From the NCBI GenBank assembly GCA_002245135.1, contig NGBS01000003.1, positions 1 through 64,000 on the forward strand: a stretch of DNA of 64,000 bases, in the 5' to 3' direction. Under the pieces are notes generated by a model. That model ran no database searches and was not told the origin of the DNA. It was given only the letters and a program-made list of their open reading frames with translations. Source of the stretch: Proteromonas lacertae (lineage: Eukaryota). Shown one piece after another: positions 31,837 through 43,514 of the stretch (positions within the stretch are counted from its first letter, which is position 1; the number at the start of each line of letters is the position of its first letter). Made by a program: the position numbers and the translations under genes.

Positions 31837-34800
31837 TCAAAATTCCATTAGTATATCTTTCATATTATTTAGATTAAAATCTTTTGCATACACATCTTTA
31901 ATGAATTGACATTTACAGCTATGTAATTGTATATTACCAGATAAGGTTATTTCTGTTTCATCTATAAAGAATTTTGTTATTTTTCTGTTATCTGTTGGTA
32001 ATAGTACTTCTTGCACTTTCATTTTTCCTGTTTTATTATTATCACGATTCTTTACTCCTATTAAGTGTGAAGTTATTTGATGTTCATCATTTACAATTGA
32101 TTGTTGTGAAGTGTTTCTTCTAGATGAAACAGAAATATAATAGAAGTTAGACCATTCCATTTCTAATTTTAAACATATCATACATTCTTTAATAATATCA
32201 TTACATTCTCTTTCTTCTACATCATTTACTACATGAATAAAACAATTATTTAATAAGTAAATCATTTCTCTATTCTCTAGAGTTGCTAAATGAAGCAAAT
32301 ATATTCCTTCATTCTCTTTTGATACATCACCTTCTTTTTTTGTAGTAGAGTATATATCTCCATCAAATAATTCTTTAAATTTTTCAAAATAACCTACCTT
32401 TATTCTCTCTAATCTAATACCTTTTTTTCCATCTAGCTTATCACCATAATATAAACAGTTGTACCATACTAATTCTTGAAACAACAATTGAAATAATTGA
32501 TGATCTTTTTCATCAGACAAATTATTAAATATATTTTGAATTTCTTTTACATCATCTTCTTCAGCTTTGTGTCTTATACAATCATAAATATAGTCAAATA
32601 TATCATTAGATATAAACTCCAATTCATATTCATTGATTCTATCATAACATTTACTTGTTCTATCTTCTTCTTTAAATGGTAAAGAATACTTCACTAAATA
32701 ATGACTTAATGTAGTATCAAATAATACTGTCCTATTTGCAGATATCTTTACTTCTTCTCCATTTTCGTTTGGTTCATTTGGATATAGATATGTAATTAAA
32801 AATTCTATATATCCAATACCACCTATTATTCTTTTTATACCTATTGTGTATAATTCACTCCAATAATCTTTACCATAACATTCCTTATATATTGCTGAAT
32901 AGTAGATATGTCTTGGAACATTTCCATATTTCTTATTAAATCCTTTTGCTGTATTTACTAAATCAGGAGGTAAACATTTTTCTTCCCATTCTACTATCTC
33001 TTTATCACTAAATACATCCATATAATAAAACACATTTTTACCTGGAGAAAAATAATAATTTTTATAATTCTGATAATCTGGTGAGGTTATATATAATGAA
33101 ATTAAAGAATAAACATCTCCCACATAAAGATTATATGAATCAGATATAGCTATATCCACATATTTATATTTGTCCTCATTATATGGACATATTTTTAATC
33201 CATTCAAGTAATAATGATTACCTTTCTCATCGTTTCCTTGTTTAAATATCGATGCTTGAATTGGATTTATAAACTTCCCACCTAATTTATTCACTTCTAT
33301 TTCCAACTTATTATTTAAGTCAATAATATTTTGTAACAAAAATATTATAAAGGATGTTTTTCCACATCCTGGATTTCCTCTTAATAAAATATTAATTCTT
33401 TCTTTAAATTTTGTCTCCATCATTTCTTTTTCTTTTTCTTTCATTATTCTGTCATTTTCTTCTACTTCATCATCATCATCTTCTTCTACTTCATCATCTT
33501 CTTCTTCTTCTAATTTTTCATCTTCTTCTACTTCTAATTTTTCATCTCTTTCTTCTTCAAAGAATTTAATGTTTTCTTTATCATCATTCACAAATGTTTT
33601 ATATGCACTTTTAACAGTTTCGTATATATCTGATTTGACACTTAGTTCTTTAATTACTTTGATTATATTATGTTCTTTATTATACTTATTCTTTTTTCTA
33701 ATCCATTCATTCATTTCGTTAATAATAATTCTGATGTTCAACCTAGCATCATCATTAATTTCTATATAATCCATATAGTCATTTAACTTTACAAATAAAA
33801 TATATTTCTTTAGTTCACTCCAAATTTCTTTATAAACATCTCGAATAAAGACTTTCCTTTCAGGATATTGATATACATCATATTCAATGCTTATTGTATC
33901 ATCTTTATTTATTGTCACAGGATGATCAAATATTTCGCATAAAGAATTAGTTTCTATAATTAATATATAATAATAACAGTAATAACATACTTGTACAGGA
34001 TTTACAATATTTATATAAATTGCCTTTCATTTCTTTAATATCATTAAAAGCAACATCTAATTCTTTTGTATCACATGAATTAATATCCAATTCTTTCATT
34101 TTTTTTACTTTTTCATTATTTGGATCTAACTCTATACTATCATTGATTTTTCTCAACTCATCAGTAATTATTGTTATTTTATCATCATTTGTCATTTCAT
34201 TTACATTACAATTTGTTAAATCTCTTTCAATTGTATTTGGATTGTAAAAGATTTGATTAAATGTATTTCTATCAATAACAATTTCAGGAATATCTTTCTT
34301 CTGTTCATATTTTTTAATAAGTAAATTTGAATTTTCTTTAGGTTGAAATTCTAATACAGCCTTATCTCGAATAAATCTTTTTTCTTTTACTTTTTCACTT
34401 TCAAAAGATGCTAGATACTTACGTAATTCTATTAAACTCATTTTTAATGTACTAAATTGAAGTCTTTTTGATTTTATAGAAATTATAATTTTTATTTGCT
34501 TGTCATTTAATACTATTCCTGTATTTACTCTTTTTTGGGGATTTTCATCTGAAAATTCATTCCAATTATAATTCTTTTTCATCTCCTTAATCATTCTATC
34601 TTGAAATAATCCATATTTTCCAAAGCTTACTTCACCTTCTTTAAATGGAGCTTTTACTTTATCATGATCGTATGAGACAAATATTATATTAAATATTGGA
34701 TTACATATTTCTAATTCATTTATTGCTTCATTCAAATCAATTTTTCTTATCCACTATAATAATAATAATAATAAAAATATACATTTATTATTTCTTTTTT

Positions 34801-41800: not shown

Positions 41801-43514
41801 TGATGAAGAATAGTAGAACATATATAAACGATGTTTTACCAATACCTGGTTGACCTGTTACTATTATATTGGGTATTCTATTGAATTTATTTATTGATAA
41901 ACATTTACAAATATCTTTAAACATTTCATAATAGCATTCTCTTAAATATATTTTTCTCTTTGGAAATTGAAATATTGGTGTTGATGTTGAAAATTCTAAA
42001 CATTTCTTGCTTTCATCACTTTGATCTATTCTCAAACTGTTTATTACTTCTACAAAACTATCTGGTGAATCAAGTAATCTTGAATTATCATGAAAATATT
42101 TCAATAACACTAATAATTCATTTATACTTCCACTCTTATACACATATTCATTTCTATTTGCTCCTAATGAAAATGTAGAGTTTATAAAATCCTTTACACT
42201 ATCAATATCATAATGTGAGTTGTTTTTAATTAAATTTGATAGATATTCAATCATATAATATTTCTTATAATTATATATTCCATATATTGTATTTGGTACA
42301 ATTACTTCATTTATCACATCATCACCTATTCTAACATTCATTCCATTTATAACAACTTCATCACCAACAACACGAACATCATAATTCTGTAATTCAATAT
42401 TCTCATATAAATTGTAATAATTTCTTTCTTTATAGTATTCTATTAATCTAACAGAAGCATCACTACCACCAGCAATAATATATGGATATATTGGAGTAGG
42501 TAAGTTTGCTGATATTAGCTCCACAGTACCATTTCCTTGTTTAATCAACATTATCTTTTTATTCATATCATATATCAGTTCATATTTTCTTCCTACTACA
42601 CCACTAATATTTGGTATTGGTGTTGATATACTGTTTTCAATCTTCTGAGATAAACCTTCTAATAATTTAATGTATGGATATATCTCATATGATGAATCTA
42701 GATTTTCACAATAACCAAAACTAATACCTTCACTACCAATACTCAATATTTCAAAATAGAAATGATAAATTCCATCTTCCATACCTACATCTATCATATT
42801 TTTCACTTCGTTTAATACATAACTATTATATCTATTATCATCACCTTCAAACACTTTATTACACATAACATAATCAATTTTCTCAGTGTAAGCATTTTTA
42901 TTATTATATAATTCTCCTCTTTCTAAGTACATAGTAATAACATTATTTTTGCCTATCAGTAATGTATCTGTTTTTACAATTTCATATCTTTGTATCATGA
43001 ATGGTGGAATATACCAATAATCACCCCATCCAAATTCACAACCTTTGTATCTTATTATATATGGAGTAACTATTAATGGTAAATCTTTCAATATCTGTTT
43101 TTTTAATCCATCTCCACATCTGATAAACATTGTCTTTCTATTCATATCATATATTAATTCATATTCAACACCTTCTTCGGCTTTAATACCTGGTATATTT
43201 TCTGAATGATCATTGTGAATCACTTCAGCTGAATCAGCTTTTAACTTAATATAACCACACTTCATTTCAAATTCTGATTTATAATGATATCCAAAACATA
43301 TATAATTATTCAATTTCACAATTGCAAATTGTAAACGATGAACTCCTTCACTCATTGGATGATTATACATTATTATTTCTTCCTTACCACTATCAATACG
43401 CTTAACTCCTTCTTGATGCTGTTCTTTATGTTTCCTCTTGTAAGCCGTAGTATCAGATCCATATCCACTTACACTATAAAAAAAATCACTCAAATAGTTT
43501 ACAATTACATCCAT
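38897..43514 (-). CDS. Giant Crinkler/RHS-like protein A (about 1524 aa): two SPRY-like domains, NTPase with a large insert, second NTPase; C-terminus possibly truncated
   Basis: ORFs 40236-43520 and 38897-40156 are joined in frame by intron 40199-40241. Walker A motifs GQPGIGKT and GNAKIGKT; Walker B IIIVD and IVIVD; SSP and YGNIPR motifs. Confidence 0.75.

Follow-up and report, generated by a model that had tools for sequence, protein, structure and literature searches.

Two tandem predicted genes of Proteromonas lacertae carry two subtypes of P-loop NTPase module in swapped order

A 64,000-nucleotide (nt) stretch of DNA from Proteromonas lacertae (NCBI GenBank assembly GCA_002245135.1, contig NGBS01000003.1, positions 1 to 64,000 of the forward strand; hereafter the window) holds two adjacent predicted genes, A and B, each of which encodes two P-loop nucleoside triphosphatase (NTPase) modules. 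The modules are of two subtypes, X and Y, and their order is X-Y in gene A and Y-X in gene B. Judged by alignments and a tree, they represent four old subtypes, XA, XB, YA and YB, with X and Y having split in parallel. The locus is likely a two-module, permuted variant of a Crinkler/RHS-like family without a name, and not a new kind of system. We regard it as roughly an even call that the two proteins are Crinkler/RHS-like nucleotide switches of the AAA+/STAND class that act as an unlike pair. The genes and their modules, with motif coordinates and exon length sums obtained by hand arithmetic, are as follows (ORF, open reading frame; regex, regular expression).

38897..43514, minus strand: predicted gene A, with its start codon (ATG) at 43514 and its stop codon (TGA) at 38897-38899; 1524 codons (4572 nt) in two exons
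43514 to 40242 and 40198 to 38900, minus strand: exons 1 and 2 of gene A, the second followed by the TGA
40242..41990, minus strand: module A1 (subtype XA), reaching the end of exon 1; placed by BLASTP to B2, the X profile and the match to relative P0013
41832..41855, minus strand: Walker A of A1, GxxGxGKT, found with a generic Walker A regex; residue 565 of the ORF from 43547
38900..40198, minus strand: module A2 (subtype YA); placed by ORF translation, alignment and tree
39878..39901, minus strand: Walker A of A2 (regex); residue 100 of the ORF from 40198
31837..38235, minus strand: predicted gene B, with its start codon (ATG) at 38235 and its stop codon (TGA) at 31837-31839; 2066 codons (6198 nt) in six exons
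37123..38235, minus strand: module B1 (subtype YB), exon 1; placed by translation, alignment, tree and AlphaFold2 model
38008..38031, minus strand: Walker A of B1 (regex); residue 70 of the ORF from 38238
31840..33953, minus strand: module B2 (subtype XB), exon 6; placed by translation, BLASTP, relatives and tree
33355..33378, minus strand: Walker A of B2 (regex); residue 217 of the ORF from 34026

The modules lie in long minus-strand ORFs (stop to stop: A1 in 40236-43547, A2 in 38897-40198, B1 in 37117-38238 and B2 in 31837-34026), and all peptide strings quoted in an earlier note on this DNA were found in the stop-to-stop translations. That note had proposed that A1 is closest to B2 and A2 to B1. 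Indeed, in an all-against-all BLASTP comparison of six ORF pieces, A1 matched B2 with E 2e-11 (39% identity over 98 amino acids (aa), plus two more stretches) and A2 matched B1 with E 1e-6 (23% over 142 aa). E values of the four cross pairs ranged from 0.007 to 0.7. When the ORF pieces were searched against the whole 64 kb window with tblastn, no fifth module was found.

Relatives were obtained from several searches. B2 retrieved four at 37% identity (best E 1.6e-89, with 7993 candidates scored), and a profile of A2+B1, used in an exhaustive HMMER search, gave 20 proteins with E <= 1e-3, 14 of them with E <= 1e-10. In word-index searches, the Y alignment had P0023 as its sole match and A2 had none. 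No relatives were found in phage records, viral contigs, JGI metagenome contigs or prokaryote genome contigs. From this set, a maximum-likelihood tree of 21 NTPase cores was calculated over 167 columns (the four window modules and 17 modules from 16 relatives; the eight fragmentary relatives P0015, P0016, P0018-P0022 and P0024 were omitted). X was separated from Y with support of 100/98, and four groups were recovered: XA with A1 and P0013_X (100/98), XB with B2 and P0001-4 (99/95), YA with A2, P0013_Y and P0014 (95/91), and YB with B1 and P0005-12 (98/97). P0023 was basal on the X side.

Each window module is thereby nearer to a relative's module than to its paralogue in the window. The approximately unbiased (AU) test rejected a clade of A1 and A2 (p 0.00057) and one of B1 and B2 (p 7.6e-5), and exclusive sister pairs of A1 with B2 (p 0.0021) and of A2 with B1 (p 0.00057) were rejected as well. 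A grouping by gene, the pattern that the earlier note had named as contrary to its proposal, was therefore not seen in the tree and is rejected by the tests. Since the window modules group with relatives and not with their paralogues, the separation of A from B types, in X and in Y, is older than the divergence from the organisms in which the relatives occur. BLASTP, tree and AU tests agree with the proposal that the genes are not simple duplicates and that both combine an X with a Y module, in an order that is permuted between them.

Alignments place X and Y as distant homologues. hhalign gave 82% probability and E 1.1e-5 over 116 columns, covering the P-loop core. Landmarks common to both are an upstream helix (..R.CY/F..), Walker A GxxGxGK[TS], Walker B hhhhD and an 'SSP' strand, together with a 'Y.D.FS..E' segment, an 'EF(I/L)S' helix and an '(F/Y)(E/Q).hh' helix. 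The individual modules differ in what surrounds these landmarks. In A1, the upstream helix is followed by the P-loop NTPase, in which a long charged insert comes after the helix of Walker A, and then by a helical region and a C-terminal part; B2 has the upstream helix, an acidic insert before Walker A (approximately 33412-33759), the P-loop NTPase, a helical region and a C-terminal part. A2 comprises an acidic lead-in, the upstream helix, a P-loop NTPase with a poly-N/D insert and a helical region, and B1 the upstream helix, the P-loop NTPase, a three-helix region and a nuclease-like C-terminal domain.

The different position of the charged insert in A1 and B2, also pointed out in the earlier note, was confirmed. 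The A1-B2 alignment breaks past A1 residue 611 and resumes at 815, with Walker A at 565, and the X profile matches residues 555-659 and 682-1076 of the A1 ORF. B2 has the acidic stretch between the upstream helix (residues 46-82) and Walker A (217). The positions are subtype-specific in relatives as well, after Walker A in P0013 and before it in P0004. The acidic insert of B2 is encoded by a GAA/GAT-rich tandem repeat at 33424-33558 (minus strand) with periods of 3 and 24, and a similar acidic run is present in the A1 insert near 41589-41634.

One relative carries both subtypes in a single protein. In P0013 (1041 aa), one open frame encodes an A1-type X module (domain E 1.8e-20) and, behind it, an A2-type Y module (6.7e-29); among the 24 relatives scanned with both profiles, this was seen in P0013 only. 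Exon 1 of gene A, which holds A1, is 35% identical to P0013 (E 7e-37). At this level of identity, the XA-YA fusion must have been maintained for a long time. The comparison indicates that the fusion is conserved and that the combination of X and Y is older than this locus.

The fold of the Y module was examined with an AlphaFold2 model of B1 (predicted local distance difference test (pLDDT) 67, predicted template modelling score (pTM) 0.68). In the model, the P-loop core is followed by three helices (245-288) and, at the C-terminus, by one helix and four strands. In Foldseek, the best matches were the Avs5 filament (E 1.5e-4, template modelling (TM) score 0.31) and ORC/Cdc6 (3.4e-4), followed by SAMD9, ZAR1 and McrB; Avs4 and NSF were also among the matches. 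On this model, the Y fold is a generic ASCE P-loop of the AAA+/STAND-like kind. Profile searches of the PDB with X and Y returned rows at chance level only, and a complex prediction with B1 (residues 30-372) and B2 (residues 1-350) gave no answer (score 0.00) and has no bearing either way.

At the C-terminus of the Y modules, a small domain with a conserved motif is found.

37156..37227, minus strand: Y C-terminal motif P-x-x-D ... Q-x-T ... H, carried by predicted beta strands that follow a helix

Y modules and P0023 end in this P..D...Q.T....H domain; A2 lacks the motif that the other Y modules retain. The P, D, Q, T and H columns are invariant in five of five aligned C-termini, and P337, D340, T355 and H360 are nearly invariant in an alignment of 12 sequences. 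DSSP assigned a helix at 302-316 and strands at 326-329, 341-344, 349-355 and 365-368 of the B1 model. From the motif and the predicted alpha-beta-beta-beta-beta topology, we infer that the domain may be restriction-endonuclease-like. In the XA counterpart of the motif, the Asp is retained and the Gln position is occupied by Lys, as seen in the pairwise alignment of P0013 with A1. Only this pairwise alignment was clear, as the MAFFT alignment of the X C-terminal region with the Y motif was without confidence and XB could not be aligned.

Assignment to a known family was attempted with hmmscan (E up to 10 for the window modules and 0.1 for the relatives; the HMMER filters may hide very weak matches). 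No piece from the window reached the cut-off of a Pfam family. On the 25 members scanned (four window modules and 21 relatives), the rows were at P-loop level only, namely nSTAND3, AAA variants, RNA_helicase and TniB. The two window X modules scored 13.9 and 14.1 bits with nSTAND3 (PF20720; cut-off 27.2 bits) and the Y modules gave no row for it; matches to nSTAND3 and nSTAND6 on the window modules were weak and below threshold. P0013 did pass nSTAND3 (35.9 vs 27.2 bits), over two short P-loop stretches only, and AAA (PF00004) was seen on B2 alone (12.9 bits vs a cut-off of 21.2). A different lead came from the ESM Atlas. Here, B1 fell next to a 'Crinkler (CRN) family' cluster with 0.96 (212/256 features) and an RHS cluster with 0.91, and B2 next to the same CRN cluster with 0.96 (218 features) and RHS with 0.91. 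PF07999 is present in 13% of the members of that CRN cluster. Such a neighbourhood is a lead and not an alignment.

The family was compared with known systems. In Crinkler proteins, the commonest C-terminus is described as an NTPase with helix-turn-helix (HTH) and restriction endonuclease (REase) parts, thought to target DNA and to stem from prokaryotic transposon genes (PMC5289972). Y (B1 and its relatives) shows the same order of parts, with a P-loop NTPase, a three-helix region and a small alpha/beta domain in which acidic and polar residues are conserved, and the CRN-family cluster is a neighbour of both X and Y. However, the window family lacks a match to the Pfam RHSP or Crinkler header profiles, no signal peptide or ubiquitin-like (Ubl) header was seen by eye in genes A and B, each of the two proteins has two NTPase modules of two subtypes, and the Y nuclease motif is Q-x-T and not (D/E)-x-K. 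A literature search returned no account of Crinkler proteins whose NTPase modules are in tandem or permuted.

The trypanosome RHS proteins (PF07999/PF20445) resemble the family in being large, lineage-specific, multi-copy P-loop proteins, and their Atlas value is the same for both modules. C-termini of RHS proteins have a similar F-P-x-x-D ... Q-M-T ... H motif. RHS proteins are described as nuclear and are thought to act on chromatin or transcription (PMC7563717). In contrast to the window family, they have another host and one module per protein, and they are not linked to it by any match of a hidden Markov model (HMM).

For the STAND class, the likeness lies in the top structural matches of the Y model (Avs5, NLRs, SAMD9) and in the nSTAND3 profile, which touches the P-loop; Avs5 itself is reported to carry nSTAND3 (bioRxiv 10.1101/2025.07.08.663546). 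Unlike STAND proteins, the window modules have no sensor repeat arrays, their bit scores are below cut-off, and the structural scores are tied with those of helicases and AAA+ proteins. Type II AAA+ proteins (NSF, p97, ClpB) contain a tandem D1-D2 arrangement of two diverged homologous modules per chain, one of them often less active. Two diverged homologous ATPase modules in one polypeptide are present here too, and NSF is among the Foldseek matches. Here, however, there is no AAA match in Pfam above threshold, the linkers are long, each module has its own helical and C-terminal domains, and the order is permuted between the paralogues.

The long minus-strand ORFs between 31.8 and 43.5 kb are interrupted by single stops or frame changes. 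The breaks are short AT-rich stretches that start with GTAT and end with TAG, and their excision yields one frame. Recoded stops were considered as a cause and rejected: genetic codes 4 and 6 leave the ORFs unmerged, indicating that the breaks are introns. The window (G+C approximately 25%, no tRNA genes in the 64 kb) is thus read with the standard code and very small introns. Intron candidates that join ORFs, collected over the whole window, peak at a length of 30-39 nt, and in genes A and B introns of 29-43 nt of the GTAT...TAG type give in-frame, stop-free joins. A 35-nt element of the same type is located at 13390-13424 (plus strand) in the conserved Walker B/DEID region of an AAA ATPase gene, between ..DEIDALL and AKRS..EHE... 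Small introns in this DNA follow the pattern GTAT...(ATT)n...TAG and are about 29-43 nt long. Two such introns, at 44372-44409 and 44480-44512 (minus strand; coordinates counted by eye), interrupt a transporter-like gene that lies upstream of gene A.

The remaining parts of gene A are:

43053..43355, minus strand: N-terminal repeat 1, about 100 aa, from BLASTP between N-terminal halves
42474..42782, minus strand: N-terminal repeat 2, about 100 aa, from BLASTP between N-terminal halves
40199..40241, minus strand: intron, predicted, 43 nt, GTATAA...AATAG; in-frame, stop-free A1-A2 join

The A1-A2 join is backed by P0013, in which X and Y lie within one unbroken frame. The N-terminal repeats share 39% identity over 104 aa (BLASTP E 3e-17) and have no match in Pfam or among PDB sequences. 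A SPRY-like identity was considered for them and dropped, as neither source supported it. P0013 does not have these repeats.

The remaining parts of gene B are:

37091..37122, minus strand: intron 1, predicted, 32 nt
36878..36907, minus strand: intron 2, predicted, 30 nt
36570..36639, minus strand: intron 3, predicted, 70 nt, GTACAA...ATATAG; above the local norm, which makes the exon 3-exon 4 join the least certain
34783..36569, minus strand: exon 4, a Q/L/N/I-rich linker, from translation and repeat search
34754..34782, minus strand: intron 4, predicted, 29 nt
33991..34753, minus strand: exon 5, 254 aa, with no recognised domain in the Pfam scan
33954..33990, minus strand: intron 5, predicted, 37 nt

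The join of exons 1 and 2 is backed by P0016, which continues into a homologue of exon 2 (E 5e-5). All eight B1-type relatives (P0005-P0012) end 2-27 residues beyond the end of exon 1. The exon 4 linker, which has no Pfam match, reads like a coiled coil and contains an internal duplication of 221 nt (35296-35516 and 35575-35795, minus strand; 77% identical, 279 nt apart). Further sub-repeats of 85 nt are present within this exon. A likeness of exon 5 to the N-terminus of P0001 (18 aa, E 0.04) was not significant and was discarded. P0001 has an AT-rich stretch that is read through where intron 5 would be.

Genes A and B follow each other in tandem on the minus strand, with about 660 nt between them, and are not head-to-head. 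Upstream of each, CCAAT boxes were found:

43612..43695, minus strand: four TTTGATTGG(T/C)TA-like boxes (reverse CCAAT) at 23-25 nt spacing, upstream of gene A
38241..38289, minus strand: two reverse-CCAAT boxes, 38253-38264 and 38278-38289, upstream of gene B

The window contains 11 matches to the box where 2.18 are expected, a number reached in none of 100 shuffles, and six of the 11 lie upstream of the two genes (four and two). The array of gene A has a 25-nt tandem period. A 34-nt element at 38241-38274 (gene B) is 91% identical to 43600-43633 (gene A); it is far better conserved between the genes than the coding DNA is. Arrays occur only before A1 and before B1, one promoter-like array per gene, which would fit two transcription units with shared regulation. 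Elsewhere in the window, the ORF 62966-63853 (plus strand) contains a stretch that we take to be the signature of the NF-YA/HAP2 CCAAT-binding subunit (..YVNAKQYHRI.KRR..), a curious find in view of the CCAAT arrays.

In the reading that we favour, an ancestral X+Y unit would have been duplicated, and one copy would have been permuted to Y-linker-X, for example by loss of the outer modules from a tandem X-Y-X-Y, or by an equivalent rearrangement. A simple inversion cannot yield the swapped order on one strand. The unlike NTPase modules in each protein would form the nucleotide-dependent interface that is typical of AAA+/STAND oligomers. The switch would then control the nuclease-like C-terminal domain, which would act on DNA or chromatin, as proposed for the NTPase+HTH+REase proteins of the Crinkler group and for the nuclear RHS proteins. 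Of this domain, YB would have an intact and X an altered form, A2 would lack it, and the YA module would likely be drifting to a non-catalytic, regulatory role.

Several observations weigh against the reading of the two proteins as Crinkler/RHS-like paired switches. Neither RHSP (PF07999) nor RHS_N (PF20445) matched any of the 25 members in hmmscan, and Crinkler (PF20147) gave no row on these members or on any piece of genes A and B; therefore, the link to Crinkler and RHS proteins comes from the language-model neighbour list only. The Atlas recognition value of B2 (2085) is under the 2300 mark. A profile of the Y C-terminal region found no match in the PDB, and structural comparison gave no fold match for this part either. 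The AlphaFold2 model of X is poor (pLDDT 44.6) and gave no Foldseek match at E <= 0.001. With VIA-align, the Y model reached Z 8.3 against Avs5 (root-mean-square deviation (rmsd) 4.1 over 137 residues), tied at that value with Dda helicase, HsdR, Cdc6, NLRs and TnsC, in a range deemed common. The stronger hhalign figure for X and Y, obtained with the 12-sequence Y alignment (98.8%, E 1e-16, 276 columns), is inflated, as this alignment includes P0023 from the X side. Two relatives, P0014 (542 aa, YA type) and P0023 (496 aa, on the X side), have the appearance of complete proteins with one module, indicating that X and Y need not always be fused. Finally, the exon joins of both genes are all predicted, and the 70-nt intron 3 that links B1 to the remainder of gene B is atypical.

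The catalytic residues belong to the same list. None of the four window modules has lost its Walker A Lys/Thr or its Walker B Asp, so none is clearly inactive. Signs of decay were seen in the YA clade. Its members (A2, P0013_Y and P0014) are without the 'SSP' strand motif, and P0013_Y (Walker A at approximately residues 806-813) has Tyr for the Walker A Thr and Tyr for the Walker B Asp, so that it is probably a dead NTPase module beside an intact X. The earlier note had suggested an active plus regulatory pair. These losses, together with that of the C-terminal motif in A2, are a weak hint in its favour, and the intact Walker residues in the window speak against it.

An alternative that is possible, though on balance doubtful, is that X and Y are independent modules of a fast-evolving, freely recombining multigene family, in which case their combination would carry no functional meaning, each module would work by itself, the fusions would have arisen by chance and the order would be a by-product of ectopic recombination. 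The apparently complete single-module proteins P0014 and P0023 are in line with this, as are the approximately 950 linker residues between the two modules of gene B and the decaying YA module. Recombination and chimeric genes are also described for the trypanosome RHS families (PMC7563717). Against it, the XA-YA fusion has been kept in P0013 at only 35% identity, X and Y have split into A and B types in parallel, and a promoter element is common to both genes. Moreover, most of the 'single-module' relatives are exon-bounded fragments, including all eight YB matches, which are therefore uninformative on module independence.

It is improbable that the fusions are artefacts of intron prediction and that the locus is a tandem cluster of four or more separate single-module genes (A1, A2, B1, linker and B2). 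Intron 3 of gene B, which with 70 nt is longer than the local mode of 30-39 nt, and the in-frame ATG of A2 at 40156 would suit such a cluster. The distance from the A1 stop to the A2 frame is only 43 nt, however, and is bridged by a canonical, frame-restoring GT...AG intron, and P0013 has both modules in one uninterrupted frame. The gaps among the gene B pieces (29-70 nt) are also far from the intergenic spacers of approximately 550-660 nt, and CCAAT arrays are found only before A1 and B1.

Slightly less credit still can be given to genes A and B as immune receptors like paired NLRs, one sensing and one executing, with oligomerisation of the STAND type once a ligand is recognised. Paired plant NLRs consist of a sensor and a helper (e.g., RGA4/RGA5) that are encoded head-to-head and have one NB-ARC each and LRRs; paired NLRs are not known to have two NTPase modules per protein. 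The likeness is in two adjacent, related and possibly co-regulated NTPase genes with common promoter boxes, in the best Foldseek matches of the Y model (Avs5, SAMD9, ZAR1 and Avs4) and in the weak sub-threshold matches to nSTAND3 and nSTAND6; the two N-terminal repeats of gene A could bind a ligand. In the pieces of genes A and B scanned, however, there was no match to NACHT or NB-ARC and no LRR, WD40 or TPR array. In structure, helicases and AAA+ proteins match equally well, and the genes are in tandem with two modules each. The earlier note had drawn this analogy as part of a proposal of module shuffling that keeps an X+Y pairing. The analogy fails on these points, on the separate CCAAT array of each gene and on the single-module relatives that appear to exist; what stands of the proposal is the permuted order and the pairing kept in P0013.

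A transposon-derived selfish element, as suggested by the derivation of Crinkler NTPase+REase pairs from prokaryotic transposon genes (PMC5289972), by weak TniB matches in two relatives (E 0.004-0.009) and by TnsC among the structural matches, is very unlikely, as the locus is flanked by (ATT)n runs only and not by terminal inverted or long direct repeats, the pieces scanned contain no transposase, integrase or reverse transcriptase, the flanking genes look ordinary and there is no second copy within the window.

The reading of genes A and B as Crinkler/RHS-like switches acting as an unlike pair can be taken further. X and Y would then be an obligate hetero-pair of Crinkler/RHS-class NTPases that was kept through circular permutation, in a eukaryotic two-module conflict or chromatin system. 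The Y module of gene A would be a regulatory pseudo-enzyme, the other module would drive a nuclease-like output, and the two genes would be switched together through the shared CCAAT-box array. In this full form, we consider the proposal unlikely.

The finding opens no long-standing problem, since domain shuffling is common in lineage-specific P-loop families, and the function is inferred. If the favoured reading is true, this would be the first anatomy of a family with about two dozen relatives, none of which matches Pfam RHSP or Crinkler, any cut-off being reached at the P-loop level only, and a hetero-paired form with two modules would be added to the Crinkler/RHS-like NTPase modules. The locus is a clean natural case of module-order permutation between paralogues, with four modules that can each be traced to their own orthologue group. 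The mutual need of the two unlike NTPase modules thereby becomes directly testable.

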